A DNA stretch of 64,000 bases from Isurus oxyrinchus (Eukaryota): contig JANJGN010000121.1 in NCBI GenBank assembly GCA_026770705.1, positions 868,001 through 932,000 of the forward strand. The letters run 5' to 3'. Below are positions 3,222-48,752 of this stretch, one piece after another. The notes under the pieces were generated by a model that saw only the letters and a list, made by a program, of their open reading frames with translations, was not told the origin of the DNA and did no database searches. Each line of letters opens with the position of its first letter. Position 1 is the stretch's first letter. The position numbers were made by a program, and so were the translations under genes.

Positions 3222-3361
3222 ACTTCCTCATTTTGTCTCACAGAGACACATCAACCCTTTCTCATTAAATACACAGAGGGGGCAGCACAGGAAGAGGTCA
3301 TTCAGCCCAAGCAGAGCGTGTGGGCAGTTCCTCCCCAGGCGAGCAGTCGGACAGGTCCTGG
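3222..3361 (+). promoter_or_regulatory. Unit A putative core promoter and 5' non-coding exon
   Basis: Block conserved in 4 units, starting at ACTTCCTC (Ets/PU.1-like) and ending at a GG|GTAAGT donor (3362). Confidence 0.55.
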
Positions 3362-4332: not shown

Positions 4333-4599
4333 ATTGTCTAAAAGCAGTTCTGATCTCTGGAGAGCTGTCGGACAAGAGGTGAGGTCTCATTAACTCCTTT
4401 CTTTTTCACAGCTTGAGAGTGAGAAGCTGATGAAATATCTGCGAGTGGACAATGATCTTACTTCCTCCTGTCACTTCTCCAAGGTAATATCATCGTCAGC
4501 TCGGACAGATTTATGGTTAATAGTCTTTGTAAAAGATTATTCTTATTGAGCTGTGATTGGGAACCGATTCAGCAGTGAGCCAGTGTACAAACTCACACC

Positions 4600-5125
4600 A
4601 AGTCCCATTCACCCATCACCCCTGTGATCACTGATATACACTGACTCCCTGTCTGACAGCAACAGAAAATTAAAATCCAGGTCATCCTGTAGAAATCCCT
4701 CCAAAATTTTGCAACTCTCCCTATCCATGTTACCTCCTCCAGCCCATACCAACCTCCCTATCTCTGTAACATCTTCCAGCACATATATTACTCCCTACCT
4801 CTGTAACCTCGCCCTGCTCCTACAATCCTCCCTATCTCAGTAACCTCCTCCAGCCCCTACCACTCTCCCTAACTCTATAACCAACTCCAGCCCCTATATC
4901 CTTCGCTATCTCTGTTAATTTCTCCAGCCCCTACAAACCTCCCTTTCTCTGTAACCTCGTCCACCATTACAACCCTCCCTATTTCTGTAATCTCCTCCAG
5001 TACCTACAACCCTCCGAGATCTCTGCACTCCTCCAATTCCAGCATCTTGACCATCCCCCGATTCCCAACATTCCATTATTGGCGGCCGTGCCTTCAGCTG
5101 CCTGGGCCCCGAGCTCTGGAATTCA
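4600..5125 (+). repeat. L2-like LINE 3' remnant with degenerate ~37-bp tandem repeat (CTCTGTAACCTCCTCCAGCCCCTACAACCCTCCCTAT)
   Basis: The same repeat follows the recognisable L2 RT fragment at 31480-33090. Confidence 0.6.
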
Positions 5126-6031
5126 AAATCAAAATTCAGGGATGAATAAACTCCAATAGTCCATTCCCTGAGAGGCCATGATTACATCACAGCAGCATTC
5201 AGAATAGACAGAGGGTCCAGCCCTCACACTTCTTGCACAGTTTCACCATAATGAAATGAATTAACTGAAAGGCAAACCGTCAGTGTAGAGAGATGAGATA
5301 TTTACACAGTTTCCCTGTGTATCTTGTAGACACTGTGTTGGGTGGAAGACTGGCTTCACTAAACAGGGTCCTGAGGACCATGAGCCAATGTAGAATGAAG
5401 TTGTCCACTCCTGTGTCCAGGATTCTCTTCCATCCATTGTGAAAACTTGGGGAGTTCCTTGTGTGTCCTGTAGATGGTCCACACTGCAGCCACTGTGCCC
5501 CAGTGATGGAAGGGGTGGATATCGAGTCTAGTGAAGCTACAAAACATCCAGAGTTAAATATTGATATTTCTCTCCCCAGTTGGACTGTCACAAGAGTGGA
5601 AAGGTGACACTCCACGAGAGGTGATAGCGCAGGAATATTCGTGTGTACAGATTCCATGTCATTACAGCTACCCATCGTGTCTGGAAAACCAACTGCAAAT
5701 TGGAATCTGATTTAATGACAAAGTCTTGATAAGATTCTTTATAGCCTTTCACTCCAAGGATAATAATCGCGAGTTACCACTGTTCCAACATCGGACCCGG
5801 CTGTCTGGAGACCTGAAAGATGGTGACTGTTCCCTGATTATAAACAACATCAGACGGGAAGATGCAGGACCTCATTTTTTCAGCATAAAATTTGACAATG
5901 GTCCGAGCCATAACTATTACCCTGTAACCCAGCTTCACGTTTCTGGTAAGTGCTGTGTTATAATTACTCAACAATTCACATTCAACACTCAATGGGAATG
6001 AACACAAACTCTGACGTTTACATAATAACAC

Positions 6032-6758
6032 TGTTATGACATGGCAGGTGATGTGTGCCAAGTGGAGAGAATCCACAAAGGGAACTTGGCCAAGCATAAT
6101 TTCCAACTACACACCCCCTTGAAGGCAACAATCCCAATAAATCTTAAATGGAAATGGGAATCCGGCAAGGTTACTGCAGCACCCACTTGACAGTGTAATT
6201 CCAAAGTCTTTTAACACACCTTTAAGTACTGGAGCAGCAAAAGTGAACAGAAACGTTTTACCCAAGGCTGCTTCACCTACTGTACCTTTCAAGAAATTCA
6301 TGTCCCCCTCCCACATAACATTCCATCCTTCTTTATGTTGGTTTCTCTCTCTCCAATGTATAAAATCCCATTGTTGCACCTTTCTTGGGAAATACACTTT
6401 TCCCAAAATATAAAAATCTTTCGTGTTGTCAATATGGCCCATTCCTTTTGGGAAGAATACACATAATAACCTTGCCCTGGTTATCTTGTTAATTATAAAC
6501 ACCCAACTACCCTTTGACAATCAAACATTCTCTTTACTGATCTAAAATTTCATTTACAGCTTTTCTGTGGAACCCTCATCCTAGCTTGTCCATCCCCATT
6601 TCAGAAGTCTGCTTTGCACCAAACTCTATTGATAATTTTAACCTCATAGTTGATCTGACTCAAATTCAATTAAATCAGACCCACAGACGGAACCATCCAC
6701 ATTCATTCCCATAAGCCGACAATATTATTCTGAAAAATATCATAGTTTCATCACAACA
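6032..6758. mobile_element. Solo-LTR-like insertion (TGTTATGA...TCACAACA)
   Basis: TG...CA termini with a short inverted repeat; absent from the homologous post-V intron in other units. Confidence 0.55.
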
Positions 6759-7509
6759 TAAAACACAGTTTACTATAACGCAGAGTCTGATTCTCAATAA
6801 CCTGGTGATAGCTTCCATTCAGTCCAAAAGCAACCTCTAATACTCACTTTAATATCAATGATTAAATGTATTGAATGTGTCCATCAATGTTATCAGGTCA
6901 TCCACTCCCATCTATCTCTAATCTTAAGGCTGTGATTTCTATTTGAACTGATGCTTCACGTTATATTTCTCTAAAAGGATCCATTCTCTGTCTGTTAGAT
7001 TTCACAGATAAACCCACGATATTCCCTGCTGAAATTATTGCAGGAAAGCGTGTGGATGTAAGCTGCACCTTCAACACAACGTGCAATGGAACAGCAGCAC
7101 CTGTCTTAACCTGGGACACTCCCACTGACGTACCTGGATCAGTCTCAAACACTGTAACTCAGCATGGTGTCACTCTGACCTATACTTCTGTTCTGACCCT
7201 GATCCCATCACTCAAACACCACGGACACACTCTCAGCTGCAGAGTGAGATATCCATCTGTTTCATCGGAGCGGACCCTCGTACTAACTGTGCAAGGTAAG
7301 TACTGACACCCTTCATTATACATTCGCTGGAACAGTCTAGATTACGCACAGCAGGATCCCATAGAAAGGTATTCTGATGACAATCAGATAATCTGTTTTT
7401 TAAAGAAAATGGTGGCCAGAATACAATTAATAACAGTTTCTGAACATTAACATAGGGGCTTTTATGTCCAGCCAAGGGGCTGCTAGAGCAGAGCAGGAAT
7501 CGCAATGTA

Positions 7510-8175
7510 CTCACCCCCTGACAGTGCAGCACTCCCTCAGTACTGACCCTCTGACAGTGCAGCACGCCCTCAATACTGAACCTCTGACAGTACAACACTC
7601 CCTCAGTACTGACCCTCCGACAGTGCAGCACTCCCTCAGTACTGACCCTCTGACAGTGCAGCGCTCTCTCAGTACTGACCCTCCAACAGTACAACACTCC
7701 GTCAGTACTGACCCTCCGACAGTGCGGCACACCCTCAGGACTGACCCACCGACAGTGCAGCACTCCATCAGTACTGACCCTCCAACAGTGCAACAATTCC
7801 TCAGTACTGTCCCTCTGACAGTGCAACACTCCCTCAAAACTGTCTCTCCGACAGATTAGCACTCCCTCAATACTGTCCCTCTAACAGTGTAGCACTCCCT
7901 CAGTACTGACCTTCCGAGAGCGCAGCACCCCCTCAATACTGACCCTCTGACAGTGTAGCACTCCCTCAGTACTGATCCTCCGAAAGTGCAGCACTCCCTC
8001 AGTACTGTCCCTCTGACAGTGTAGCACTCCCTCAGTACTGACCCTCCGACAGTGCAGCACTCCCTCAGTACTGTCCCTCTGACAGTGTAGCACTCCCTCA
8101 GTACTGACCCTCTGACAGTGCAGCACTCGTTCAGTCCTGACCCTCTGACAGTGCAGCACTCCCTCAGTACTGACA
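7510..8175 (+). repeat. 33-bp minisatellite CAGTACTGACCCTCYGACAGTGCAGCACTCCCT
   Basis: Direct tandem repeats. Confidence 0.95.
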
Positions 8176-8414
8176 CTGGGGAATTTCAGTCTACTCTGTG
8201 GGGCAGGCATCTCCTGAATGGGGTCTTGAACCCCAGAAAATTCTACAACATACTGACTCCCTGAGTTCGGGTGTGAAACCCACTGACCCACAGGAGAAAC
8301 TCCTGGTTAATGACTGTCCATCAGTGAGCAGAAATATCACCACAGGGTCAGGACACAAAGCGTTAACAGTTCACCAACATCTCAAAACATGAGCTGCTCT
8401 GTCACTTTGATCCA

Positions 8415-8554
8415 ACTTCCTCATTTTGTCTCACAGAGACACATCAACCCTTTCTCATTAAATACACAGAGGGAGCAGCACAGGAAGAGGTCATTCAGCC
8501 CAAGCAGAGCGTGTGGGCAGTTCCTCCCCAGGCGAGCAGTCAGACAGGTCCTGG
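8415..8554 (+). promoter_or_regulatory. Unit B putative core promoter and 5' non-coding exon
   Basis: Same conserved block; donor GTAAGT at 8555. Confidence 0.55.
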
Positions 8555-10739
8555 GTAAGTAACGGAACGATTGGAATTCACTTCCACGACCAACACCGTC
8601 CTTTGTTGATGTTGTGACTTTATAAAGACAGATTCCAATGATTGATGCCTTTGAAAGATTTCTATGATTATTGAGATCTGGGTGTGAGGCTCAAGTCTGT
8701 TGTACAGAAAATCTTTCTAGCTCAAGGGATGAGGGAACTGTAGATACTTTGGGATGCCCTGATGTGGTGAATGGTGCTATAGAAATGCAAGTCCTTTGTT
8801 GTTTTTCATTCTTAAAGCCTTGTAACTCTCTGCAGAACACCTATCATCCCACAGAGAATCAAATTATTCTGTGAAGACATTGTCTAAGAGCATTTCTGAT
8901 CTCTCGAGAGCTGGTGGACAAGAGGTGAGGTCTCATTAACTCCTTTCCCTTTCAGAGTTTCAGAGTGAGAAGCTGATGAAATATCTGGGAGTGGATAATG
9001 ATTGGAAAATCTTACTTCCTCCTGTCACTTCTCCAAGGTAATATCATCGACAGCTCGGTCAGATTTATGGTTAATAGCCTTTGTAAAAGATCATTCTTAT
9101 TGAACTGTGATTGGGAACCGATTCAGCAGTGAGCCAGTGTACAAACTCACACCAAGTCCCATTCACCTATCAACCCTAAACTATCTGACTCCTGGTCCTA
9201 CAACATCTCAAACTTAAAATTCACATCTCTTTGTTCAAATGCATCCATTGCCTCACACTGCCTCCTTATCTCTGTAACCTCCTGCAACTCTCCCAACCAA
9301 CGTCCCAGATCTCTGTGTTACTCCAATTCCGGCCTCTTGACAATCCCCCGATTCCCATCACTCCAATACTGGCGGCCGGGCCTTCAGCTGCCTGGGGCCT
9401 GAGCTCTGGAATTCACTCCCTAAACCTCGGGATGTAGGAGATCAGAGGGTTTCATTTTACTGAAAATCACCACGACCACATCACAGCTGCAGTCAGAATA
9501 GACAGAGAGTCCAGCCCTCGCACTTCCTGCACAGTTTCACCATAGCAACCACAATAAGGAAGTAAAATAACTGAAAGTTAAACCGAAGCTCAACCAGTCA
9601 GTGTAGAGAGATGAGATATTTACACAGTTTCCCTGTGTGTCTTGTAGACACTGTGTTGGGTGGAAGACTGGCTTCACTAAACAGGGTCCTGAGGACCATG
9701 AGCCAATGTAGAATGAACTTGTCCATTCCTGTGTCCAGGATTCTCTTCTATCCATTGTGAAACACTGGGGAGATCCCTGTGTGTCCTGTAGATGGTCCAC
9801 ACTGCAGCCACTGTGCCCCAGTGATGGAGGGGGTGGATATCGAGTCTAGTGGATCTACAAACCATCCAGAGTTAAATATTGATACTTCTCTCCCCAGTTG
9901 GACTGTCACAAGAGTGGAAAGGTGACAGTCCCCGAGAGGTGACAGCGCAGGAAGGTTCGTGTGTACAGATTCCATGTCATTACAGTTATCCAGCACATTT
10001 GGAAAATCAACCGCGAGGTGAAGTCTGGTTTAATAATGAGAATCAGATTCCCTGGGCTCCCATTGCCTTTCACTCCAAGGATCACAGTCACGAGTTACCA
10101 TGGTTCCACCATCGGACCCGGCTGTCTGGAGACCTGAAAGATGGCGACTGTTCCCTGATTATAAACAACATCAGATGGGAAGATGCAGGACCTTATTTTT
10201 TCAGAATAAAATTTGACAATGGTCGAGCCATAACTATTACCCTGTAACCCAGCTTCATGTTTCTGGTAAGTGCTGTGTTATAATTACTCAACAATTCACA
10301 TTCAACACTCAATGGGAAATAACACAAAGTGTGACGTTTACATATTAACACAAAACACAGCTTATTATAACACACTGTCTGATTCTCAATAACCTGGTGA
10401 TAGCTACCAGTTCAGTCCGAAAGCAACGTCTAATGCTCACTTCAATATCAATGATGAAAAGCATTAACTGTATTATCAGGTTATCCACTCCCATCAATCT
10501 CTCCTGTCCTGTTTAAAAGTCTGACGTATCGATAAAAGAAAGATGTGCATTTCTGCAGCGCAATTTACCACCTCAGGAGGATCCAAATCCATTCACAGCC
10601 AATGAAATTATTCCTGAATTGTAGTCACAGATGTTAAACACAGCAGGCAGTTTGTGCACAGCAAGATCCAACAAACACAATGTAATAAATCACCCAGATC
10701 ACTGAGGAAATGAGAAGCCAGTGAACTCAAACCTCTGGT

Positions 10740-10871
10740 CTGATGAAGAGTCATACAGACTCAAAACGTTAACCCTGTCTTCCTCTCCACTGATACTGTC
10801 AGACCTGCTGAGTCTTTCCAGCAATTTTTGTTTTTGTTTCAGATTTCCAGCATCCACAGTATTCTGCTTTT
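10740..10871 (+). mobile_element. Short Penelope-like terminal fragment with degenerate hammerhead motif
   Basis: CTGATGA-AGAGTC-ATACA-GACTC-AAAA-CGTT followed by the same tail as the element at 58843-60999; imperfect flanking direct repeat. Second copy near 19416-19547. Confidence 0.6.
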
Positions 10872-13558
10872 AACTCCAATCTCTGGTCTGAGCCTCTTCT
10901 CTCATCCAGTGTTCTCAATTCACATGTCTCGGAGTGAACGTGTATTAAGCTGAGAGACAGAAACACTACTGCCAAAGAGCAAGAAAATCTTTCCTGATCA
11001 TTGTAACCTCTCAGTTCTGATATCATCCTTGTAAAAGTGCTTTCTCTTGTGGGACTGTGATTTCTATTTGAACTGATGCTTCACGTTATATTTCTCTAAA
11101 AGGATCCATTCTCTGTCTGTTAGATTTCACAGATAAACCCACGATATTCCCTGCTGAAATTATTGCAGGAAAGCGTGTGGATGTAAGCTGCACCTTCAAC
11201 ACAACGTGCAATGGAACAGCAGCACCTGTCTTAACCTGGGACACTCCCACTGACGTACCTGGATCACTCTCAAACACTGTAACTCAGCATGGTGTCACTC
11301 TGACCTATACTTCTGTTCTGACCCTGATCCCATCACTCAAACACCACGGACACACTCTCAGCTGCAGAGTGAGATATCCATCTGTTTCATCGGAGCGGAC
11401 CCTCGTACTAACTGTGCAAGGTAATTACATACACCTTTCATGCTACATCAGCACTCCCTCAGCGCAGACCCTTTGACAGTGCAGCCCATTCTCTGTATCC
11501 ACATTCTAAGGCCTCTCTAAGTGCTTCAAAGTCGATAGAAGTTAATTGATCTTTATATGATTATTGCTGAATGAAGAGACAAGCTGTCTAAACTTTACAT
11601 CTCGCACACACCATTCTCCATGGCAACACCTCCACCTATCAGAGACCACTTGCCAACCAATCAGCACTCTCTTCCCATTAAGTATAAATTGTTGTTCACT
11701 TTCTGTTGGTAATCCTGTGAACGGGCTTCTTGATTCCTGCCATGACATCTGAATGTCCAAATGAACAGAACAAGTTCCAAAAATTAGCTGTGATTGGTGA
11801 TTCCTCACGTTACATCCAGGGACACTGGAGACTATCAGTGTGTGGCAGAGAATGAACATGGAGCAGTGGATGGGTTCATAACCATCACTGTGGAACTTGA
11901 GTTATAGAGACTTCAATATCTCTCTCAGATTTGAACACTACACAAACACCATCGAACATACACAACTAAATAGACACAAGCAGACACACATATATGACCA
12001 CACACAAAGACACACTCACACACAAACACTAACACTCACTCCCTCATGGGTTACCTGACCTCCCTCAGTACTGCACTGGAGAGTTGGCCTGAATTCTGGG
12101 ATTTGTGTTCCCATTCATATTTATGGAAGAATATGGAAATTACTATTACAGACACTCAGATGCATAGAGGCTCTCACAGATACTCTCTGCGTCTCCAACT
12201 CTCTCTCTCCCTTTAAGAAGCTTCCTGAAACCTAACCCTTTGACGAATCACCAACCCAACTCTTCCTTATCTGATTCTGTGTGATTTTCTTTGTGAATCT
12301 GAGAGTAAGAGAGAGTTGGAGAGGTTTAGGAAGAGAATTCCTGCTGGTGAAAAGCTTACATAGTGTTCTCACTATTTCCGTGCACATAATTCCCATTATG
12401 CCCCTGTTTGTAATGATGATTGCCTATGTAAACGTCACGCTGTAGTTACAGCCTCCCACCAGTGGTGGCATTGTAGCCCTTAATCCTTGTGTTTCCCAGC
12501 TTTCCCAGCAACTCTACTTCCCAATTTGCTACACAAGCTGTGAGTTCATCGGAATTCAATTATTTCACAAACGGTAGATTTGATGTCATTTTATTGAAAA
12601 CTTCCTCAGCGCCTCCCTGAAGGGTTTACACTCTCCGGGTGGCAGGAATAGGCTGGATGTTGGGGAGTTCATCTTTTCCCAGAGAGAAGGGATCCTCGGG
12701 AATGTGCTGTCAGTGGGTGTGGTGGTTGCTGTTTCTCTGTCACCTTCAAGAGGGATCTGGAGTGGTTACTGACTGGGGGAGAGATCATGGAAGCGGAGAA
12801 TGATACAGCACAGGAGGAGGCCATTCAGCCCATTGAGCCTGTGCCAGGTCTTTCAATGTTCTATCCCATCAGATCCACTAACCACCACTCCACTTTGCTC
12901 CCATCTTCCTCCTTCAAGTGTTTATCCAATTTCCCTTTTGAAAGTTCTTATTGAATCTGCTTCCACCTCCCTTTCAGGCAGCACCTTCCAGATCACAACA
13001 ACTCGCTCTGTCAAAACAAATTCTCCTCATCTCCCCCTCCGGTTCGTCAATCTGTGTCCCTCTGGTTACCGACCCTCCTGCCCCTTAAATACATCGATAC
13101 TGTTCACCTCAACCACTCCCTGTGGGAGCGAGTTCCACATTCTCCCCTCCCTCTGGGTAAAGATTGGAACTGTTTATTAAGTGGGGTGTGTAAGTCCGTG
13201 GGAGAGTCCATCTCGATCCTGCCTGATTCGCACACACGTCTGAGATGGATTTCCACCCTGCACTAAACGTTTCCAGAATTTTCTACAGCACAATCCTGTA
13301 CACAGCGATGGAGAGAAACATTGGACAGAGAGTCCAACAGCACAATGATCCATTCTCACCAATGTTCCACGCTAAGGGGAAAGTTCCGATTGTCCACTCT
13401 TAGAGTGTTTACAGTGAAAACATTCATTCCACATTGAATCCCAGTGGATGGGTCAATATTACAGCAAATGTTGCAGTGATATGAAGCTTGATTGTTCAGC
13501 CAGAGTGAGAGATTGAAAGCGGAGAGTCAGTGATGATTTCTTTCTGTGTGTTCTCTAG

Positions 13559-13698
13559 ACAGTGGAGGAGAGATTCTGCACGTGATCCTGATCCTGGGAA
13601 TACGAGCTGTGATATTCCTTGTGGCTGTGGTTATCATTATCGCTGGAGTCTGTGTCTGGGAGAGACAAACAGTGAAAGGACGTCGACAGACTGTTTAA
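13559..13698 (+). CDS. Unit B TM exon with Arg (activating type)
   Basis: AG at 13557-13558; xSGGEILHVILILGIRAVIFLVAVVIIIAGVCVWERQTVKGRRQTV* (TAA 13696-13698); near-identical to 861-1000. Confidence 0.8.
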
Positions 13699-13739
13699 AG
13701 CTTTGTACAGCAACAATCTCATCATGGAACAGAAGGACG

Positions 13740-16860: not shown

Positions 16861-17080
16861 TGATATCAGGGATTGTCAATATGTATCATACGGCCAGAGA
16901 CCTGTATTGGGAAGTCTATCGCCTGCGCTTCAGCTCTGAGATGAGGGGGAGGGGTCTAATCCCACGGAGCCAATGGAGAAGCTTGATGACTACAGCTGCC
17001 CAAATATGAGCTGACAGATCATCACATGGTAAACGTTTTGCTGAGAGCACAAAACATCCTCGATCTTCTCACTGATTACC

Positions 17081-17221
17081 CACTTCCCCATTTTGTCTCC
17101 CAGAGACACATCCACCCTTTCTAATTAAACACACAGAGGGAGCAGCACAGGAAGAGGTCATTCAGCCCAAGCAGAGCGTGTGGGCAGTTCCTCCCCAGGC
17201 GAGCAGTCGGACAGGTCCTGG
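17081..17221 (+). promoter_or_regulatory. Unit C putative core promoter and 5' non-coding exon
   Basis: Conserved block starting CACTTCCCC; donor GTAAGT at 17222. Confidence 0.55.
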
Positions 17222-17671
17222 GTAAGTAACGGAACGATTGGAATTCACTTCCACCACCAACACCGTCCTTTGTTGATGTTGTGACTTTATAAAGACAGAT
17301 TCCAATGATTGATGCCTTTGAAAGATTTCTACTGATTATTGAGATCTGGGTGTGAGACTCAAGTCTGTCGTACAGAACATCTTTCTAGCTCAAGGGATGA
17401 GGGAAGTGGAGAGACATGAGCTTTGGGACATCCTGAGGTGGTGAAAGGTGCTATGGAAATGCAAGTCCTTCATTGTTTTTCCTTCTTAAAGCCTTGTAAC
17501 TCTCTGCAGAACACCTATCATCCCACAGAGAATCAAACTATTCTGTGAAGACATTGTCTAAAAGCAGATCTGATCTCTCGAGAGCTGTTGGACAAGAGGT
17601 GAGGTCTCATTAACTCCTTTCTCTTTCAGAACTTCAGAGTTAGAAGCTGAGGAAATATCTGGGAGTGGACA

Positions 17672-17711
17672 ATGATCGGTAAATCTTATTTCCTCCTGTC
17701 TCTTCTCCAAG
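17672..17711 (+). CDS. Unit C leader exon (signal peptide MIGKSYFLLSLLQ)
   Basis: ATG at 17672, 40 nt, phase-1 GT donor; continues in frame into VGLSQEW. Confidence 0.8.
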
Positions 17712-18571
17712 GTAATATCATCGTCAGCTTGGACAGATTTATGGTTAATAGCCTTTGTAAAAGATCATTCTTATTGAGCTGTGATTGGGAACCGATTCAG
17801 CAGTGAGACAGTGTACAAACTCACACCAAGTCCCATTCACCCATCACCCCTAAACTATCTGACTCCTGGTCCTACAACATCTCAAACTTAAAATTCACAT
17901 CTCTTTGTTCAAATGCATCCATTGCCTCACACTGCCTCCTTATCTCTGTAACCTCCTGCAACTCTCCCAACCAACGTCCCAGATCTCTGTGTTACTCCAA
18001 TTCCGGCCTCTTGACCATCCCTCGATTCCCATCACTCCAATACTGGCGGCCGGGCCTTCAGCTGCCTGGGGCCTGAGCTCTGGAATTCACTCCCTAAACC
18101 TCGGGATGTAGGAGATCAGAGGGTTTCATTTTACTGCAAATCACCACGACTACATCACAGCTGCAGTGAGAATAGACAGAGAGTCCAGCCCTCACACTTC
18201 CTGCACAGTTTCACCATAGCAACCTAATAAGGAAGTAAAATAACTGAAAGTTAATCCAAAGACAAACCAGTCAGTTTAGAGAGATGAGATGTTTACACAG
18301 TTTCCCTGTGTGTCTTGTAGACACTGTGTTGGGTGGAAGACTGGCTTCACTAAACAGTGTCCTGAGGACCATGAGCCAATGTAGAATGAAGTTGTCCACT
18401 CCTGTGTCCAGGATTCTCTTCCATCCATTGTGAAACCTTGGGGAGTTCCATGTGTGTCCTGTAGATGGTCCACACTGCAGCCACTGTGCCCCAGTGATGG
18501 AGGGGGTGGATATCGAGTCTAGTGGATCTACAAACCATCCAGAGTTAAATATTTGATATTTCTCTCCCCAG

Positions 18572-18940
18572 TTGGACTGTCACAAGAGTGGAAAGGTGAC
18601 ACTCCACGAGAGGTGACAGCGCAGGAAGGTTCGTGTGTACAGATTCCATGTCATTACAGTTATCCAGCACATTTGGAAAATCAACCACGAGGTGGAGTCT
18701 GGTTTAATAATGAGACACAGATTCCCTGGGCTCCCATAGCCTTTCACTCCAAGGATCACAGTCACGAGTTACCACGGTTCCGCCATCGGACCCGGCTGTC
18801 TGGAGACCTGAAAGATGGCGACTGTTCCCTGATTATAAACAACATCACACGGGAAGATGCAGGACCTTATTTTTTCAGAATAGAATTTGACAATGGTCCG
18901 AGACATAACTATTACCCTGTAACCCAGCTTCACGTTTCTG
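18572..18940 (+). CDS. Unit C Siglec-type V-set exon (intact)
   Basis: 369 nt, AG/GT, phase 1-1. AQEGSCVQIPC...GDLKDGDCSLII...EDAGPYFFRIE matches the Siglec V-set cysteine pattern and essential Arg. Confidence 0.9.
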
Positions 18941-19799
18941 GTAAGTGCTGTGTTATAATTACTCAACAATTCACATACAACACTCAATGGGAAATAACAC
19001 AAACTGTGACGTTTACATATTAACACAAAACACAACTTATTTTAACACATTGTCTGATTCTCTATAACCTGGTGATGGCTTCCAGTTCAGTCCTAAAGCA
19101 ACGTCTAATACTCACTTTAATATCAATGATGAAAAGCATTAACTGTATTATCAGGTTATCCACTCCCATCAATCTCTCCTGTCCTGTTTAAAAGTCTGAC
19201 GTATCGATAAAAGAAAGATGTGCATTTCTGCAGCGCAATTTACCACCTCAGGAGGATCCAAATCCCTCCACAGCCAATGAAATTATTCCTGAATTGTAGT
19301 CACAGATGTTAAACACAGCAGGCAGTTTGTGCACAGCAAGATCCAACAAACCATAATGTAATAAATCACCCAGATCACTGAGGAAATGAGAAGCCAGTGA
19401 ACTCAAACCTCTGGTCTGATGAAGAGTCATACAGACTCAAAACGTTAACCCTGTCTTCCTCTCCACTGATACTGTCAGACCTGCTGAATCTTTCCAGCGA
19501 TTTTTGTTTTTGTTTCAGATTTCCAGCATCCACAGTATTCTGCTTTTAACTCCAATCTCTGGTCTGAGCCTCTTCTCTCATCCAGTGTTCTCAATTCACA
19601 TGTTTCGGAGTGAACGTGTATTAAGCTGAGAGACAGAAACACTACTGCCAAAGAGCAAGAAAATCTTTCCTGATCATTGTAACCTCTCAGTTCTGATATC
19701 ATCCTTGTAAAAGTGCTTTCTCTTGTGGGACTGTGATTTCTATTTGAACTGATGCTTCACGTTATATTTCTCTAAAAGGATCCATTCTCTGTCTGTTAG

Positions 19800-20096
19800 A
19801 TTTCACAGATAAACCCACGATATTCCCTGCTGAAATTATTGCAGGAAAGCGTGTGGATGTAAGCTGCACCTTCAACACAACGTGCAATGGAACAGCAGCA
19901 CCTGTCTTAACCTGGGACACTCCCAATGACGTACCTGGATCAGTCTTAAACACTGTAACTCAGCATGGTGTCACTCTGACCTATACTTCTGTTCTGACCC
20001 TGATCCCATCACTCAAACACCACGGACACAATCTCAGCTGCAGAGTGAGATATCCATCTGTTTCATCGGAGCGGACCCTCGTACTAACTGTGGAAG
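19800..20096 (+). CDS. Unit C C2a exon (Siglec domain-2-like C2-set)
   Basis: 297 nt; DFTDKPTIFPAEIIAGKRVDVSCTFNTTCNGTAAPVLTW...LSCRV, with the extra Cys after the B-strand Cys. Confidence 0.9.
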
Positions 20097-20420
20097 GTAA
20101 TTACATACACCTTTCATGCTACATCAGCACTCCCTCAGCGCAGACCCTCTGACAGTGCAGCCCATTCTCAGTATCCACATTCTAAGGCCTCTCTAAGTGC
20201 TTCAAAGTCGATAGAAGTTAATTGATCTTTATATGATTATTGCTGAATGAAGAGACAAGCTGTCTAAACTTTACATCTCGCACACACCATTCTCCATGGC
20301 AACACCTCCACCTATCAGAGACCACTTGCCAACCAATCAGCACTCTCTTCCCATTAAGTATAAATTGTTGTTCACTTTCTGTTGGTAATCCTGTGAACGG
20401 GCTTCTTGATTCCTGCCATG

Positions 20421-20572
20421 ACATCTGAATGTCCAAATGAACAGAACAAGTTCCAACAATGAGCTGTGGTTGGTGATTCCTCATGTTACATCCAGGGACA
20501 CTGGAGACTATCAGTGTGTGGCAGAGAATGAACATGGAGCAGTGGATGGGTTCATAACCATCACTGTGGAAC
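20421..20572 (+). pseudogene. Unit C truncated C2b exon remnant
   Basis: 3' half (MNRTSSNNELWL...ITVE|GT) present; acceptor and 5' half replaced by the same ~180-bp insert as in unit B. Confidence 0.75.
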
Positions 20573-23029
20573 GTGAGTTACACAGACTTCAACAACTCTC
20601 TCAGATTCGAACACGACACAAACACCATCGAACATACACACCTAAATAGACACGTGCAGACACACATATATGACCACACACAAAGACACACTCACACACA
20701 AACAATAACACTCACTCCCTCATAGGTTACCTGACCTCCCTCAGTACTGCACTGGAGAGTTGGCCTGAATTCTGGGATTTGTGTTCCCATTCATATTTAT
20801 GGAAGAATATGGAAATTACTATTACAGACACTCAGATGCATAGAGACACTCACAGATACTCTCTGCGTCTCCAACTCTCTCTCTCCCTTTAAGAAGCTTC
20901 CTGAAACCTAACCCTTTGACGAATCACCAACCTAATTCTTCCTTATCTGATTCTGTGTGATTTTCTTTGTGTATCTGAGAGTAAGAGAGAGTTGGAGAGG
21001 TTTAGGAAGAGAATTCCTGCTGGTGAAAAGCTTACATAATGTTCTCACTATTTCCGTGCACATAATTCCCATTATGTCCACTGCCCCTGTTTGTAATGAT
21101 GATTGCCTATGTAAACGTCACGCTGTAGTTACAGCCTCCCACCAGTGGTGGCATTGTAGCCCTTAATCCTTGTGTTTCCCAGCTTTCCCAGCAACTCTAC
21201 TTCCCAGTTTGCTCCACAAGCTGTGAGTTCATTAGAATTCAATTATTTCTCAAACGGTAGATTTGATGTCATTTTATTGAAAACTTCCTCAGCGCCTCCC
21301 TGAAGGGTTTACACTCTCCGGGAAGCAGGAATAGGCTGGATGTTGGGGAGTTCATCTTTTCCCAGAGAGTAGTGATCCTCGGGAATGTGCTGTCAGTGGG
21401 TGTGGTGGTTGCTGTCTCTCTGTCACCTTCAAGAGGGATCTGGAGTGGTTACTGACTGGGGGAGAGATCATGGAAGCGGAGAATGATACAGCACAGGAGG
21501 AGGCCATTCAGCCCATTGAGACTGTGCCAGGTCTTTCAATGTTCTATCCCATCAGATCCACTAACCACCACTCCACTTTGCCCCCATCTTCCTCCTTCAA
21601 GTGTTTATCCAATTTCCCTTTTGAAAGTTCTTATTGAATCTGCTTCCACCGCCATTTCAGGCAGAACCTTCCAGATCACAACAACTCACTCTGTCAAAAC
21701 AAATTCTCCTCATCTCCCCCTCCAGTTCGTCAATCTGTGTCCCTCTGGTTACCGACCCTCCTGCCCCTTAAATACATCGATACTGTTCACCTCAACCACT
21801 CCCAGTGGGAGCGAGTTCCACATTCTCCCCTCTCTCTGGGTAAAGATTGGAACTGTTTAGTAAGCGGGGGGTGTAAGTCCGTGGGGGAGTCCATCTCAAT
21901 CCTGCCCGATTGAGCCAGTGAGCCAGTGTACAATCTCACACCAAGTCCCATTCACCCATCACCCCTGTGCTCACTGATATACACTGACTCCCTGTCTGAC
22001 AGCAGAATTGGAGGAGAGCAGAGATCTCAGAGGGTTTTAGGGTTGGAGGAGGTTACAGGGATCGGGAGTGAAGAGGGGGGATGGTGGGGTAAGAAATCAA
22101 TGATGAGAATTTGAAATTTGAGTCATTGCTGGACTGGGAGTCAGTGTAGTTCAGCCAGTGACAGGGCAGCGATCGGCTGAATAGAAAATCAGGGATAAAA
22201 ACTGGGGGATGAAGTCTATCCTGATGCTGGGACTCGGATAACAATGCCCTGAAATTTTGTGTCTTTTGCTGATTTTAGTCAGAATTTCCCATGAAGACAA
22301 CACAGCAGCTCCTAGAATAGACAGGCTGTTCAGTGTCACTCTTCCTGTCCATTCTCACCATGCTAGATACTTCAATAAGGGAGCAAGATAACTGAAAGAG
22401 AGAAGGAAGGTAAAGCTGTCTGTGTGTAAAACTGTCAAATATTCTGAGTTCTCATGAGTGTCTCTGATCTGCTGCAGAGTTTAAATTTCACAGAATCTGA
22501 GCACTTTGCAGCTCAGAGAGAGACCATTGACTCACTGCCTGAAAGGGCGGTGGAAGCAGATTCAACAGGAACTTTCAGAAGGGGAACTGGATAAATACTT
22601 GAAGGGGACATTTTGCAGGGCTGTGGAGGAGAGAGCAGAGGTGAGAGTGGGACTAATTGGACAGATCTTTCAAAAGCCCAGCACAGGCTCAATGAGCCAA
22701 ATGGCTTCCTTTTGTTCCCGATCATTCGACAATCTGATAAATTAAGCCCCACATCAATAACTCTTAAGGCTCCAGCTGCAGGGATGGATCTTTGAGAAGG
22801 ACAGGGAACAAGAGGTTTCTGGTATCATTTTCAATTTTATTGACAATTACATAACAGTATAGATTTGTTGAATATTTGAGTCTCTAAAGAGTAGAGGTAA
22901 TCTGCACTTACGCCCAGATCTTGTGGTAGTAACCTTGTCTGGAGGTGTCTTTAAATGCTCACAGTGATCTGTGGGATTGTCATTCTTGGATGTTCTCCCT
23001 GGTTCCAATTGGCATTTTGCCCTTGATGC

Positions 23030-35920: not shown

Positions 35921-37182
35921 NNNNNNNNNNNNNNNNNNNNNNNNNNNNNNNNNNNNNNNNNNNNNNNNNNNNNNNNNNNNNNNNNNNNNNNNNNNNNNNN
36001 NNNNNNNNNNNNNNNNNNNNNNNNNNNNNNNNNNNNNNNNNNNNNNNNNNNNNNNNNNNNNNNNNNNNNNNNNNNNNNNNNNNNNNNNNNNNNNNNNNNA
36101 CATACGCACAAACATACACAGATGCACACACACAGACAGAGATACACATAGATGCACACACAGAGACACATACACACCGATGCNNNNNNNNNNNNNNNNN
36201 NNNNNNNNNNNNNNNNNNNNNNNNNNNNNNNNNNNNNNNNNNNNNNNNNNNNNNNNNNNNNNNNNNNNNNNNNNNNNNNNNNNNNNNNNNNNNNNNNNNN
36301 NNNNNNNNNNNNNNNNNNNNNNNNNNNNNNNNNNNNNNNNNNNNNNNNNNNNNNNNNNNNNNNNNNNNNNNNNNNNNNNNNNNNNNNNNNNNNNNNNNNN
36401 NNNNNNNNNNNNNNNNNNNACTAACACAGACACACACACGCACACACACATACAGACACACACACACAGACATACGCACACACACAGACACACACACATA
36501 GACACACACAAACATCCACATCGACAAACACAAACACACACACACACAGACATATGCACACACACACACACAGATGCACTCACACAGACAGAGACACACA
36601 TAGTTGCACACACAGAGACANNNNNNNNNNNNNNNNNNNNNNNNNNNNNNNNNNNNNNNNNNNNNNNNNNNNNNNNNNNNNNNNNNNNNNNNNNNNNNNN
36701 NNNNNNNNNNNNNNNNNNNNNNNNNNNNNNNNNNNNNNNNNNNNNNNNNNNNNNNNNNNNNNNNNNNNNNNNNNNNNNNNNNNNNNNNNNNNNNNNNNNN
36801 NNNNNNNNNNNNNNNNNNNNNNNNNNNNNNNNNNNNNNNNNNNNNNNNNNNNNNNNNNNNNNNNNNNNNNNNNNNNNNNNNNNNNNNNNNNNNNNNNNNN
36901 NNNNNNNNNNNNNNNNNNNNNNNNNNNNNNNNNNNNNNNNNNNNNNNNNNNNNNNNNNNNNNNNNNNNNNNNNNNNNNNNNNNGCAGACACACAGACACA
37001 CATACAGACACACACACACAGACATACGCACACACACAGACACACACACACATCCACATCGACTAACACAGACACACACACAGGAATACGCACACACACA
37101 GACACACACACACAGAGACACAGAAACATCCACATACACAAACACAGACACATACACACACACACAGACATACGCACACACA
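35921..37182. repeat. CA-rich microsatellite region with N runs
   Basis: (CA)n-like sequence flanking three N blocks. Confidence 0.9.
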
Positions 37183-38259
37183 GTTCCTGATCTCTCAGTT
37201 CCGCACTGGATCACTCTGGATCACTGTCCTGGTTTTTGGGCTGTGTTGAAACATTCAGTTTGGACTCTCTTTAAAACCGATCTCTTTGACAAAGCTTTTG
37301 GTGAAACAAACATACGAACACAGGAATGAGGAGCAGCAGGAGGCCACTCAGCCCCTCGAGCCTGTTCCACCTTTCCATAAGGTCATGGATGATCTGATTG
37401 TAACCTCAACCCCACATTCCCTGCTCACCCTTGATGACCTTTCACCCCTTTGTGAATCAAGAACCTATCAAGCTTCACCTTATTCTCCCTGTCAAAATGG
37501 ACAATTTCATCTTTTCCCACGTTATACACTATTTGCCAGATTTTGCCCATTCACTTAAAACTCTGTGTCACTTTGTAGGCTCCTTATGTCCCCTTCACAA
37601 GGTCATCTGTCCCTAACATCACCTCAGCTGACTCAGGGTCTAGACAGGTTTTAGTCAACAGTGAACAGGCAGAAATTGGAGTTTGATTAATAACCAAATA
37701 TTTCATTGATAAAATTATCAATAATTGTTACACTGAAAAGGGTGACCTGTATTTATTGAATGATCAGATTGTCCCAAAACACTTTACAGTCAATGAGATA
37801 TATTTGAAGCAATGTCATGTTGTAATGTAGGAAATACGGCACCAAAATGTGTACAGCAAGATCCCACACAAGGTGACAGTGATCTGATAATGGATTATTT
37901 TAGTGAGGTTGGTTGATACGTATATAGACATCACATGTATAGGGTGGGTCACTAATGTCCATTTAGTGAGGAAAACCTGTCCATTTTAACAGGTCTGGGT
38001 GTATAAGTGACTCCAGTCTGTAACACCAACATGGTTAACTCTTACCTGCCCTCTGAACTGGTCTCCCAGTTTGGGACAAACCAGTGGTTCAGGAGGAAGA
38101 CTCCCCACCACCTTCTCAAGGGGAAACTAGGGATGGACAATAAATGTCAGCATTGCCCGAGAATGAGTATTTAAACACTGAGTGAGTGTATCGCTTCTCG
38201 AGATACATCGGAGCATCATTGTAAACCTGTAGTGCAGTAATTAATGGCTGTTTTTACAG

Positions 38260-38356
38260 GTAGAGACTCCAGTAAATGGACAGTAGGATTGTTCACGGCT
38301 GGGATCATGTTGAGTGTTTTCCTGGCTGGAATCTTCATCTTCATCTGTGTGAGAAA
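38260..38356 (+). CDS. Unit D uncharged TM exon
   Basis: TTTTTACAG acceptor; GRDSSKWTVGLFTAGIMLSVFLAGIFIFICVRK; phase 1 in, phase 2 out at GTAAGT. Confidence 0.8.
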
Positions 38357-38899
38357 GTAAGTGTGAAGATTTAACTTGATTTTAATATAAACATTTGCTT
38401 CAATGTTCTTTCCTGAAGTCGGTGATTGTTTCCCTTGGGATCAGCACCAGGTCCCTCTCTGTAAGTGATCCCTGTGTCCACTCTGATCCAGAGAGAACCT
38501 TTCATTGTCCTGTATCCAGGTAAATGATCACGAGACCCAGAGATTCCTCACTCTGCACGATTACTCCTGGATTGTATCAGGTCACCTTGTGATTCCACAC
38601 AAGCGGAGTGACCACACCCCGAAGATTGGTTCATTCACCGGGAACGGCTTTGCAATGTTCCAGGGACTTGAATAAGTAACTGTACATTCCCACGTTGTAT
38701 CTGCCTCTCTCTGATTTAGATTCACAGGGATGATATCAGAACTGAGAGGTTATAACCATCACAAGGATTGAACAGTCTGGGTAGTGGGACTAACTGGACA
38801 GTTTATACAAAGGGCCAGCACAGGCACGATGGGCTGAGTGGCTTCTTCCTAAGCTGCGAGATTTTAAATCCCTACATCGAATGTGGCTGTCACTGGTGA

Positions 38900-39330
38900 G
38901 GCCGCTATTAATTGCCCATCTCTAATTGCCCCTTGAGAAGGTGGGGGTGAGCTGCCTTCTTGACCCGCTGCAGTCCATGTGGTGTAGGTACACCCACAGT
39001 GCTGTTAGAGAGGGAGTTCCAGGATTTTGACCCAGCGACAGTGAAGGAACGGTGATATATTTCCAAGTCAGGATGGTGAGTGACTTGGAGGGGAACTTCC
39101 AGGTGGTGGTGTTCCCATGTGTCTGCTGCCCTTGTCCTTCTAGATGGTAGAGGTCGCGCGTTTGGAAGGTGCTGTTGAAGGAGCCTTGCTGAGTTGCTGC
39201 AGTGCATCTTGTAGATGGTACACACACTGCTTCCACTGTGTGTTCATGGTGGAGGGAGTGAATGTTTAATGTGGTGGATGGGGTGTAGATCAATCGGGCT
39301 GCTTTGTCCTGGATGGTGTCAAGCTTCTTG
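38900..39330 (-). mobile_element. Non-LTR retrotransposon 3' fragment
   Basis: SKSWNSLSNSTVG...RVKKAAHPHLL LINE-like C-terminus; same family on the + strand at 43260-43995. Confidence 0.65.
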
Positions 39331-39463
39331 ATTCTGTGCTTTGTGCAGAGGTGATTTAAAGAGACAGTCCAGTCGTTGGTGTAAGGTTACAGTGGGCTCT
39401 GTGTCTGTGCTGCACTGACTCTCTGCTATATGATAACCACAGTGTGATATTGTGTTATTTCAG

Positions 39464-39545
39464 GAGAAAGACAGCGATGGAGGAGAGAGTTTCAGGGACC
39501 AGTGACATTGCATTGACCCCCAGTCCACTCTCAGTGAATCACCAG
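39464..39545 (+). CDS. Unit D cytoplasmic exon 1
   Basis: TTTCAG acceptor; phase 2 in, phase 0 out; RKTAMEERVSGTSDIALTPSPLSVNHQ. Phases fit both neighbouring exons. Confidence 0.75.
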
Positions 39546-39680
39546 GTACAGGAGCTGTTTACACTCACTCCCAAGCTTCAATCTCAGTGTGTAGACAACA
39601 CGTGTCCCAGATTCCCAGCCCAGTTACCCACTGATTTGTACCTGTGGAGTCAGCAATGGTTCAGTATCACGCTGTCTCTC

Positions 39681-40437
39681 TGTTATGACACAGCAACTGG
39701 TAAAGGCTGTTGTTTAAAATCCCAGAGGGAAACTTTAAACAACTGTCATAACCTATATATCCCAGTGGAATGTTTGAGATGCAGCTCTAAATTCAGGAAT
39801 AAGACCACCAGTTCTCGAGATGGGTTTATATCAAACTACATGAGACATTTATTAATTTACACAAGTTAAACATATGCACATGGCTACAAACTAGTATTAT
39901 CATAACTTTTTAACAAATTCTCTAACTAATCTCCTCTAAGACAACACATAGATTTCAAGCAGATTCCAGCAAAGCATTTTCACCTCACAAATTCCAAATG
40001 AAGTTCCTTTCACTTTGGTTCCTTTGCAGACAGGTGTAGGCTTACAGCTGCTTTGATGTTACAAGCCTCTGCTCTGCACACACAAAACTGCTCAAGTTAT
40101 ACCCAGTGCTTCTCTTTGAATGTAAATTCTCATTGTATCATCAGGACCTTTGAACTCCATCTCTTCTAACAATAAATCCCCTTTCATTGTCTCAATTTTA
40201 TTAGTAATATAAATGTTGATTGGTTTAACATTTCGCCCCCAGACATTGAATGCTCTAATTAAAAATGCAAATTACCACTTTACCTCTTTGTTTACATCTG
40301 AAGACTACTAGACATCCAAGTACCCAGACTGGCTGGCTTTAGTCCAATTAAAACACACACAAACACACCCACAGACTGAACTTCTGTCTAAATAGACAAT
40401 TTCCAATTACATTACATACATTAATAGATTCATAACA
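39681..40437. mobile_element. Solo-LTR-like element (TGTTATGA...TCATAACA)
   Basis: Perfect 8-bp terminal inverted repeat; related copy at ~45683-46507. Confidence 0.6.
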
Positions 40438-40574
40438 CTCTGTCTCTGTCCCTTCATCTCTATCTCTCTCTCTAATCCTCTCTCTGATTACAAGGTTCAT
40501 ATTATTGAGCCTCACACCAGGCACCTGTGTGCAGAATCCAAGCCGTCACTCGCCAGAGCCATTACCGAGGGAGT

Positions 40575-41140
40575 GCGGGACTGACAGAGGGTCAGTACTG
40601 AGGGAGTGCTGCACTGCCGGAGTGTCAGTACTGAGAGAGTACTGCACTGCCGGAGGGTCAGTACTGAGGGAGTGCTGCACTGTCGGAGGGTCAGTACTGA
40701 GGGAGTGCTGCACTGCCGGAGGGTCAGTACTGAGGGAGCGCTGCACTGTCGGAGGGTCAGTACTGAGGAAGTGCTGCACAGTCGGAGGGTCAGTACTGAG
40801 GGAGTGCTGCACTGTCGGAGGGTCAGTACTGAGGGAGTGCTGCACTGTCGGAGGGTCAGTACTGAGGGAGCACTGCACTGTCGGAGGGTCAGTACTGAGG
40901 GAGTGCTGCACTGTCGGAGGGTCAGTACTGAGGGAGTGCTGCACTGCCGGAGAGTCAGTACTGAGGGAGCGCTGCACTGTCGGAGGGTCAGTACTGAGGA
41001 AGTGCTGCACAGTCGGAGGGTCAGTACTGAGGGAGTGCTGCACTGTCGGAGGGTCAGTACTGAGGGAGTGCTGCACAGTCGGAGGGTCAGTACTGAGGGA
41101 GCACTGCACTGTCGGAGGGTCAGTACTGAGGGAGCACTGC
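40575..41140 (-). repeat. 33-bp minisatellite, reverse orientation, very homogeneous
   Basis: Tandem AGGGAGTGCTGCACTGTCGGAGGGTCAGTACTG. Confidence 0.95.
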
Positions 41141-41290
41141 ACATGCCTTAGGTGGTTTCTTTCATAAGACATGGGAAGGACAGTTAAACCCACTGAGCCA
41201 CGACTGACACTAACGAGGCTGCAGAATAATTTAACCCTATCAGTGCCAGTAAATGATGTGAGGATGTCTTCTGTTTCCATTTCTCTGTAG

Positions 41291-41539
41291 GGTAAACAGA
41301 ACGTGCTGATTACTGAGCCCCGGAACACAACCAGAGACACAACTAGTGAGGGGGAGACCCCAGCTCCCCGGGGTCTCTCTGAAGGTGCAGTGGGAGGCGA
41401 TGCTGGACATGGAATCCCTGACAATCCTGACAACCTTCTCTACGCCAATCCCCAAGTCTTCAGGGTGTCCATTGGTGATGCGTCTGTCCACAGGGAAGAG
41501 GAGACGGAATACGCACAGATCAGATTCAAGCGAAACTGA
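41291..41539 (+). CDS. Unit D terminal cytoplasmic exon with two tyrosine motifs (LLYANP, TEYAQI)
   Basis: TTCTCTGTAG acceptor, phase 0; GKQNVL...DNLLYANPQVFRV...EEETEYAQIRFKRN*. Layout resembles the CD33 LHYASL / TEYSEV tail. Confidence 0.82.
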   Translation, partial: GKQNVLITEPRNTTRDTTSEGETPAPRGLSEGAVGGDAGHGIPDNPDNLLYANPQVFRVSIGDASVHREEETEYAQIRFKRN

Positions 41540-47636: not shown

Positions 47637-48752
47637 GTAATACCATCGTCAGCTCGGACAGATTTATGGTTAATAGTCTTTGTAAAAGATCATTCTTATT
47701 GAGCTCTGATAGGGAACTGATTCAGCAGTGATCCAGTGTACAAACTCACACCAAGTCCCATTCATCCATCACCCCTGTGCTCACTGATATACACTGACTC
47801 CCTGTCTGACAGCAGAATTGGAGGAGACCAGAGGTCTTGGAGAGTTGTAGGGGCTGGAGGAGTTTACAGGGATAGGCAGGTTTGTAGCAGCTAGAGCAGA
47901 GTCTTAAAATTCAGTTGCTGTCGGACGTTGGTCACTGAGCGATGGGGATTGATGGGTTGAGTAGAGAAGCAGAGATAAATACTGGCGGATGAAGCCTATC
48001 CTAATGCGAGGTCTCCAATAGCAATGGCCTGAAATTTTTGTTCTTTGCTGCCTGTATTCAAAATTGCCCATGAAGACAGCACAGCAGCTCCTAGAATAGA
48101 CAGGCTGTTCAGTGTCACACTTCCTGTCCATTCTCACCTTGCTAGATACTTCAATAAGGGAGCAAGATAACTGAAAGAGAGAAGGAAGGTAAAGCTGTCT
48201 GTGTGTAAAACTGTCAAATATCCTGAGTGATCATGATTGTCTCTACTCTGCTACAGAGATTATGTCACGGGACATTAGAGATGGGCAGTAAATGCTGGCC
48301 TTGGCAGCGACGCCCACATCCCATGAATGAATACATTTACAAAATCTTATTACTTGGAAGGTGCAAGTGCAGGTTGTTATGATCCTTGAGCAGACCCTCT
48401 CAGCACTGACCCTACTCCAGCAGACACTGTGAAACACACTAACAAAGCGCCTCTCGCCTGAGCTCTGCATGTGTCGGAGGTGCCGCTGTGGTGGGTTCAT
48501 GACTTTCAAAGATGGTGTTGTTTATTTGTTCAAACTGAACTTGGCCCCACACAAAACGCTGATACCAGAAACCTCTTGTTCCCTGTCCTTCTGAAATATC
48601 CGTGACTTCAGCAGGATTCTGAAGAGTTGCTGATGGAGGAACAGAAACCAATTTTTTTTGGTAATTTACAGTTAGGAACAAGTAATGTTTTGTTTCAAGG
48701 AGACGAGTTTTGAGATTTAAGACACCTGCGAAGAGAATAAAGCTACAAGATT

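Follow-up and report, generated by a model that had tools for sequence, protein, structure and literature searches.

An old microhomology joint shared by 14 Siglec-type gene copies in Isurus oxyrinchus and the long receptor it may encode

Genes and features at the locus

The window, a stretch of 64,000 nucleotides from contig JANJGN010000121.1 of Isurus oxyrinchus (GCA_026770705.1, positions 868,001 to 932,000), lies in a cluster of ~450 transmembrane (TM) exons, Arg-bearing and uncharged types being present near 1:1. One gene in the window, unit C with the downstream exons of unit D (Table 1), has nine open coding exons with AG/GT ends that give a coding sequence of 2184 nt and a predicted protein of 727 residues with no internal stops. 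This open six-domain model agrees with an earlier, sequence-only reading, which had proposed L-V-C2a-V-V-C2a-TM-tail, or isoforms with skipped exons, from open, phase-compatible exons. The same reading took it for the only model in the window free of coding lesions; this holds for models lying wholly inside the window, but the gene to which the TM exon at 861-999 belongs proves intact as well when the 5′ part lying upstream of the window is included. A further exon candidate near 40495-40575 was rejected, as it has no reliable donor and its flanking exons are joined directly in the shark proteins P0021 and P0011.

The N-terminal V domain finds its best PDB matches in Siglec-5, Siglec-7, MAG, Siglec-10 and CD33 (E 8e-15 to 2e-13), and the Pfam profiles V-set and Ig_CD22 score above cut-off in all three V exons. 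Each of these keeps the F-strand Arg (YFFR or YYFR, aligning with YFFR of Siglec-5), so that three Arg-bearing V domains are present as proposed. Siglecs carry odd cysteines that form intra-sheet and V-C2 disulfides; V Cys21/26/84-90, C2a Cys22/28/80 and the extra Cys33 of the third V fit this pattern, and the predicted disulfides could pair all 16 ectodomain cysteines (3+3+3+4+3) evenly. An inhibitory CD33-related Siglec combines a membrane-proximal ITIM with a distal ITIM-like or ITSM motif. The distal motif TEYAQI is found in 31 of 34 tails and a proximal xxYANP or xxYANI in 32 of 34 (LLYANP in the window copy), the proximal tyrosine, with neither L nor V at +3, falling outside the ITIM consensus. 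Judged by one ITSM-like motif, the window tail is probably inhibitory.

Table 1. Features of unit C, its joint and the downstream exons (window coordinates)
Feature	Position	Strand	Observation
Arg-bearing TM exon of unit B, type lost from unit C	13559..13697	+	227 look-alikes in assembly
5′UTR exon of unit C (putative promoter upstream)	17082..17221	+	family-level splice 17220>17629, RNA-type run X2
Leader exon, ATG 17672, phase-1 donor	17630..17711	+	leader also present in P0011 of white shark
V-set exon 1, Siglec type, F-strand Arg, Cys 21/26/84	18572..18940	+	profile and structure matches
C2-set exon (C2a), open	19800..20096	+	V>C2a splice in X2, X4, X5
Second C2-type exon remnant, 5′-truncated, without acceptor	20420..20572	+	full-length in 2/14 junction copies
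Last intron of Arg-TM genes (left parent)	21382..21905	+	directly 5′ of Arg-TM exon in 14/14 un-fused matches, 916 kb
Fusion joint, CCGATT + four foreign letters making 8-base tandem repeat	21906..21924	+	14 exact assembly copies
Former leader intron of downstream gene	21925..30700	+	broken sense LINE (RT match in 23772-24932), antisense retroelement-like stretch
Cryptic exon with strong acceptor; 85 residues in frame before a stop	27994..28253	+	in X2 joined to the leader exon
V-set exon 2, long CC′ region, Arg kept	30701..31087	+	joint 20094>30699 in X2
V-set exon 3, Arg kept, extra Cys33	34727..35092	+	
Second C2a exon, open	35464..35760	+	splice 35091>35463 in X1, X2, X5
Uncharged TM exon	38260..38356	+	226 look-alikes in assembly
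First cytoplasmic exon	39464..39545	+	exon order as in P0021
Last cytoplasmic exon, LLYANP + TEYAQI motifs, stop	41291..41539	+	

Anatomy and parentage of the joint

Unit C tracks unit B to about 21911, as had been noticed, with 96.5% identity over 17079-21911 (4834 bases compared). The switch into a post-leader intron is likewise confirmed (21908-22483 against 47719-48262, 81%), but the partner named for it, from 47730 onward, is not the best match: the leader introns of unit A and of other paralogues fit better, and 21906-22004 matches 4564-4661 at 96%. The proposed 6-base microhomology, CCGATT at 21906-21911, is common to both parents; the joint is nevertheless not clean, as the four letters that follow match neither parent and create the tandem repeat, identically in 14/14 copies.

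For the left-parent intron 185 un-fused copies were counted, and the right-parent intron is preceded by a leader in 15/15 un-fused matches; in its class of at least 94% identity, all seven genes with a reachable TM exon end in a tyrosine tail (three more were not reached). By these sequence matches the stretch left of the joint comes from the last intron of an Arg-transmembrane (activating-type) gene and that to its right from a leader intron mostly of tyrosine-tail genes, and the parent intron types make the gene a hybrid of activating-type and inhibitory-type paralogues. Un-fused parent arrangements, 3.7-4.8 kb long, occur in seven places, and from these neighbours the founding deletion is estimated at 3.7-4.8 kb; together with the parent introns they uphold the view of an activating-type front joined by deletion to a leader-less downstream gene. 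A C2-then-V order without the joint was not found in 916 kb. That unit C has lost its TM exon and unit D its promoter and leader is also sustained: a search of 21912-30700 for homologues of a TM exon, a 5′UTR exon or a leader found none (best match to a promoter or leader E 0.076), and no homologue appeared of the separate unit D leader or promoter that would have spoken against the fusion. The stretch 23217-26781 was considered as an insertion in the fused lineage and rejected, five sampled un-fused loci having lost it at a 4-base microhomology.

Copies of the joint and their condition

A 34-base sequence across the joint has 14 exact matches in the assembly, spread over eight contigs. Three copies share contig C52, three C150, two C121 and two C385, and copies on the same contig cannot be alleles of one another. 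Their flanks differ by 0.3-3.9% on the left and 0.3-4.8% on the right, and the same four foreign letters in all 14 copies establish a single origin, the joint being an old event inherited by 14 paralogues. Eight copies end in a tyrosine tail and six in an Arg anchor. On a tree of the junction the tail label needs three changes, two of them forced by well-supported branches, and the tails cluster weakly on it (a score as low in 40 of 500 shuffles). C385b, whose anchor is of the Arg type, aligns collinearly with the window for 16.4 kb (97.5%), and the copy on C323 carries the front of unit B on the joint (99.3% over 9.5 kb, with the same frameshift). We infer that the joint was duplicated after its birth and its ends swapped between tail types.

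Nine junction copies out of 14 are intact, compared with eight neighbours out of 38, a contrast to be read with the relatedness of the copies, which are not independent, and with an exon library built from the window. The other 30 neighbours are broken under strict scoring; four junction copies are broken, a fifth has no leader acceptor, and C150b, scored intact, is without one C2 cysteine. Among the copies pN/pS is 0.66 for the upstream V and 0.93 for the upstream C2a, and the remaining Ig exons range from 0.44 to 1.43, with no clear purifying signal.

Transcript evidence

The C2a donor at 20096 must now reach 30701. RNA joints were assessed on assembled contigs of four runs, and a C2-to-V splice of the predicted type (20094>30699, GT..AG) is present as one contig in one of them, X2, a run tentatively taken as RNA. 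This contig has a depth of 6 vs ~5100 for the C2a exon contig, its short side measures 27 letters, and it cannot be tied to one copy. Because many V starts (32 of 53) and C2a ends (19 of 35) in a sample fit the RNA joint within tolerance, a back-splice or read-through from a unit without a TM exon would give the same joint. The 20096>30701 splice suggested for checking has thus gained one low-depth contig of its type, which a back-splice would resemble. Among the contigs listed none spans 21911 and none joins 20096 to 27994, and neither gap in such a listing speaks against transcripts of these kinds.

In run X2 the family leader exon is also spliced to the cryptic acceptor at 27994, which weighs against the long form. 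This acceptor is kept in 13 of 14 junction copies; its exon holds a 19-residue hydrophobic stretch as well as an ATG (28002) and a phase-1 donor (28084) that is weak, and six AATAAA signals lie in the 10.6 kb intron.

Interpretation and rival explanations

Unit C is quite probably one of 14 fusion copies derived from a single old microhomology deletion of ~4 kb, its predicted spliced product being a tyrosine-tailed V-C2-V-V-C2 receptor of 727 residues. A deletion, likely of ~4 kb, would have been repaired at the 6-base microhomology, so that the last intron of an Arg-TM gene ran on into the leader intron of its downstream neighbour. Since all ectodomain introns are of phase 1, the C2 donor can reach the next V acceptor and would skip 10.6 kb to do so. 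Segmental duplication may later have spread the joint, while unequal crossover or conversion within the near-identical V and C2 exons may have swapped fronts and tails. The predicted outcome is a set of genes that share the lengthened ectodomain and come in matching activating and inhibitory types.

A less likely reading, though one of some weight, accepts the joint as real and old but has the long protein made rarely or never, the copies being passengers of segmental duplication whose transcripts terminate early (in the cryptic exon at 27994 or by intronic poly(A)) or pass directly from the leader to the downstream V. The broken neighbours, pN/pS near 1 in several exons, the use of the cryptic acceptor in family RNA, the AATAAA signals and the low depth of the fusion-type joint all favour this; against it, the only C2a exit among the joints listed for the four runs is a V acceptor, with no 20096>27994 among them, and junction copies are more often intact than their neighbours. 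It is improbable that the downstream half is a gene of its own, started inside the intron with ATG 28002 and the donor at 28084 as substitute leader, while the front yields a separate short product. Its 27-codon ATG-to-donor reading has a hydrophobic start and phase 1 as in a true leader, and contigs of X1 and X2 cover 28065-28979. The donor is weak, however, promoter and leader homologues are missing as described, no 28083>30701 is among the joints listed, the strandless contigs may stem from an antisense retroelement, and one junction copy lacks the stretch.

The likeness to SIGLEC14/SIGLEC5 drawn by the sequence-only reading implies an allele that arose by recent local deletion and has an un-deleted counterpart at the same locus. 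A putative activating-type promoter does stand before a tyrosine tail here, and un-fused arrangements exist among the paralogues; yet the joint is found in 14 paralogous copies, several per contig and up to 4.8% apart, the nearest un-fused right flank is only 94.3% alike, and the breakpoint is non-homologous and adds domains, so that this part of the proposal is not supported and such an allele is very improbable. An assembly chimera of two paralogues might be feared among hundreds of genes 90-99% identical over many contigs, but all 14 occurrences of the joint have flanks that diverged independently; misassembly, which the earlier reading had named as a refuter, is thereby rejected, and a chimera is scarcely credible.

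More speculatively, and rather doubtfully, one non-homologous deletion may have founded a Siglec subfamily by setting V-C2 on V-V-C2, which selection then spread and divided again, yielding activating receptors and matching inhibitory ones, each with three sialic-acid sites. The usual picture of paired immune receptors is one of complete pairs that gene conversion keeps alike; if this proposal is true, the birth of a paired-receptor set would have been caught in one genome. The datable single-origin joint tags 14 genes and traces the passage of a new ectodomain layout to both signalling types, and it offers a natural test of whether the inner V domains of a Siglec bind sialic acid and add to reach or avidity. 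Should the long protein not be made, the joint would be a routine result of turnover in so large a cluster.

Comparison with known systems

Annotated Siglec-12/13-like proteins of sharks (P0011 and P0021 of white shark, P0003 and P0007 of catsharks) share the leader, V, C2, TM and tail exon types, and tandem V domains are common among them. A V after C2 is absent from 81 of 82 such proteins, all of them automatically predicted and retrieved within a length limit of 225-2000 residues. The one exception, P0016, was rejected as an independent case, its divergent, leader-less front coming from another gene type in what looks like annotation read-through. Primate Siglec-12 has two V-set domains, which are adjacent; the shark model resembles it in having more than one V and differs in that a V-C2 unit precedes V-V-C2. 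A search of openly accessible papers on Siglecs in sharks, cartilaginous fish and elasmobranchs did not find this cluster or fusion, and one on KIR fusions returned nothing relevant; two papers (PMC8455134, PMC13262535) mention Siglecs in passing.

The human SIGLEC14/SIGLEC5 fusion arose by crossover between highly similar 5′ regions at a single polymorphic locus (PMC4042635, PMC6288428) and yields a protein identical to Siglec-5 (PMC4042635). Both cases concern a Siglec cluster in which an activating TM exon is lost. In the shark a putative activating promoter, with the front of its gene, would stand on a probably inhibitory tail, an anatomy that fits here and in 8/14 copies, 6/14 ending in an Arg anchor. 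Unlike the human fusion, the shark joint unites unlike introns (last intron vs leader intron) at a microhomology, its model gains a V and a C2a before V-V-C2a, and it recurs in 14 paralogues, six of them with an activating-type anchor. FCGR2C, a hybrid of FCGR2B and FCGR2A, arose by homologous unequal crossover with domain number kept (PMC6563257). It, too, is an old chimera that combines the ectodomain of one paralogue with the signalling end of another and marks a segmental duplication with later copy-number change; the shark gene differs in its non-homologous founding joint, its longer ectodomain and in carrying either tail; its later swaps look homologous.

Structure and setting of the fusion gene

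The fusion of unit C to the leader-less unit D is real. An initial sequence-only reading had unit C tracking unit B and then switching, at a CCGATT microhomology, into a post-leader intron, and this is borne out: after the joint the sequence tracks a post-leader intron, and CCGATT is common to both parents. The next four letters match neither parent and produce an 8-base tandem repeat. No promoter, 5′UTR or leader homologue for D was found between joint and first D exon (best match E 0.076), and the model is open as described, with nine coding exons, AG/GT ends, 2184 nt, 727 residues and no internal stops. Its ectodomain domains carry 3, 3, 3, 4 and 3 cysteines in order; the extra one in the third V-set (V) exon would allow every ectodomain cysteine to pair.

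Positions of features (in coordinates of the window, G000:C121:868001-932000, unless another place in the assembly, G000, is named)
Feature	Position	Remarks
Fusion gene	17082-41539 (+)	
Stretch of C tracking B	17079-21911	96.5% identity
CCGATT joint	21906-21911	
Interval searched for promoter or leader	21912-30700	
Presumed-RNA joint	20094>30699	GT..AG; equals predicted 20096>30701
Cryptic exon	27994-28980	within antisense retroelement-like stretch; predicted tail short and hydrophobic, its end close to AATAAA at 28914
Proximal tyrosine, last exon	~41441-41449	A-N follows in 32/34 tails
Broken A-B pair	2427-13715	recurs at G000:C52:1895425-1906718 (98.1%) and C323:311001-321000 (99.3%)
Unit E	53724-64000	tandem ~1 kb units, one C2-type exon each, 8 in window, ninth beyond; second V frameshifted, as is the TM exon beyond the window
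Arg-anchor gene model	G000:C52:1863161-1893667	intact; seven consecutive V exons
Duplicated cytoplasmic exon pairs after tyrosine tail	G000:C52:2743201-2763200	also in several background genes and white shark model P0021
Un-fused left-parent copy	G000:C121:655080 (minus)	junction copies' A variant just 5′ of breakpoint

Judged by homology, the immunoglobulin exons belong to the Siglec type. In the PDB, unit C's first V exon matches Siglec-5, -7, MAG, -10 and CD33, and the F-strand arginine lines up in these matches. Each of the model's three V exons scores above the cut-off for Pfam V-set and Ig_CD22. The nearest proteins that carry a name are automatically generated shark Siglec models, headed by those of white and basking shark. 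The cluster is very large, with TM types at about 1:1 (226 uncharged and 227 Arg-bearing TM exon matches in the 4.98 Gb assembly; at least 54 and at least 63 on the 4.17 Mb contig C52 alone), and some contigs may be duplicate haplotypes. Most of the cluster genes sampled are broken.

'Inhibitory' (uncharged TM, tyrosine tail) and 'activating' (Arg anchor) are putative labels drawn from motifs. TEYAQI, present in 31 of 34 tails sampled, fits the ITSM/distal motif consensus; the proximal LLYANP is without the L/V of the ITIM consensus, and with A-N after its tyrosine it is closer to the Grb2 pYxN motif than to an ITIM.

Origin and amplification of the joint

A 34-base pattern spanning the joint has exact matches at 14 places on eight contigs (reversed control, none); among these copies the left flanks are 0.3-3.9% diverged and the right flanks 0.3-4.8%. 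Misassembly, raised earlier as a possible refutation, is ruled out by these diverged flanks together with the common foreign letters, which, being identical in all copies, point to one origin. Since several copies sit on one contig they are paralogues, and the earlier view of a private, local deletion allele is accordingly unlikely. The joint is, on the evidence of its copies, old and amplified.

In un-fused form the left intron occurs 185 times in the assembly; in the 916 kb sampled, an Arg TM exon directly follows in 14/14 un-fused matches, and a leader exon precedes un-fused right-intron matches in 15/15. Among the latter, seven of the ten at ≥94% identity reach a TM exon, always of the tyrosine-tail type, the other three not being traced far enough; TM types are mixed in the five at 88-90%. 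Where an Arg-TM gene lies immediately upstream of a right-parent-type gene, the breakpoints are 3.7-4.8 kb apart (seven cases, excluding the window's own B-to-junction row). A deletion joining the last intron of an Arg-TM gene to the leader intron of the next is thus the likely founding event. The deletion proposed earlier probably holds, but would have happened in an ancestor of 14 genes, not at this locus alone. The C121:655080 copy, the only un-fused one with the A variant among 100 of the 185 matches listed, is a candidate closest relative of the left parent.

C2-then-V order without the joint occurs nowhere in the 916 kb sampled. One of 82 homologue proteins was flagged for it (P0016), and was rejected as an independent case, its front being a divergent leader-less gene piece.

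Probable reshuffling of the copies, and their intactness

Eight junction copies end in a tyrosine tail and six in an Arg anchor. A tree built from 5 kb about the joint requires the tail label to change three times, two changes being forced by well-supported branches, and the label clusters only weakly on it (as low in 40 of 500 shuffles). The Arg-anchored copy C385b is collinear with the window over 16.4 kb at 97.5% identity, and copy C323 carries unit B's front (99.3%, identical frameshift) on the fusion joint. Synonymous divergence of the C2-set (C2a) exons, 0.9-1.4%, is lower than that of the introns, a pattern that exchange among the copies would produce.

Junction genes are intact in 9/14 cases vs 8/38 other units by one rule (naive Fisher p 0.006) and in 10/14 vs 13/38 by a lenient one (p 0.027), only a hint that they are more often intact, because the copies share ancestry, the library of exons was built from this window and copy C150b passes despite a missing C2 cysteine. 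Across Ig exons, pN/pS among copies is 0.44-1.43.

Transcript evidence

RNA mapping covered contigs from five of 24 runs and two organisms, their RNA nature guessed, and recovered the family-level splices UTR>leader, V>C2a and V>V. The sole joint listed for 19990-30800 at 97% likeness is the predicted splice onto unit D, in one contig of run X2 (depth 6, short side 27 letters; C2a contig depth ~5100). The prediction is matched to that extent, but the joint is not copy-specific (32/53 V starts and 19/35 C2a ends in the sample fit it), and an identical joint would result from a V-C2a back-splice or from read-through of a TM-less unit. In X2 a leader exon is also spliced to the cryptic acceptor, which is kept in 13/14 junction copies and could truncate transcripts; there is a slim chance that the cryptic exon's ATG and weak donor act as a substitute leader.

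The reconstructed history of the joint is well supported and very probably correct. That an old, amplified fusion would encode a long receptor is the overall explanation we favour with some confidence; the chances that the full-length protein is made are about even, and expression of long receptors as matched activating/inhibitory pairs seems rather unlikely.

Comparison with known fusions

Literature searches on Siglecs of sharks, cartilaginous fish and elasmobranchs, with subscription papers and supplements outside their scope, found no report of the cluster or fusion. The human SIGLEC14/5 allele is polymorphic; it originates between regions of high similarity and encodes Siglec-5 from the SIGLEC14 promoter (PMC4042635; PMC6288428). 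FCGR2C is a hybrid from non-allelic homologous recombination with variable copy number afterwards (PMC6563257). The SIGLEC14/SIGLEC5-like picture first offered for the shark gene does not hold for that allele's defining features. The shark joint resembles both systems in that it brings the signalling end of one gene under the front of another. It differs from what defines them in being non-homologous, in adding domains and in occurring with both tails.
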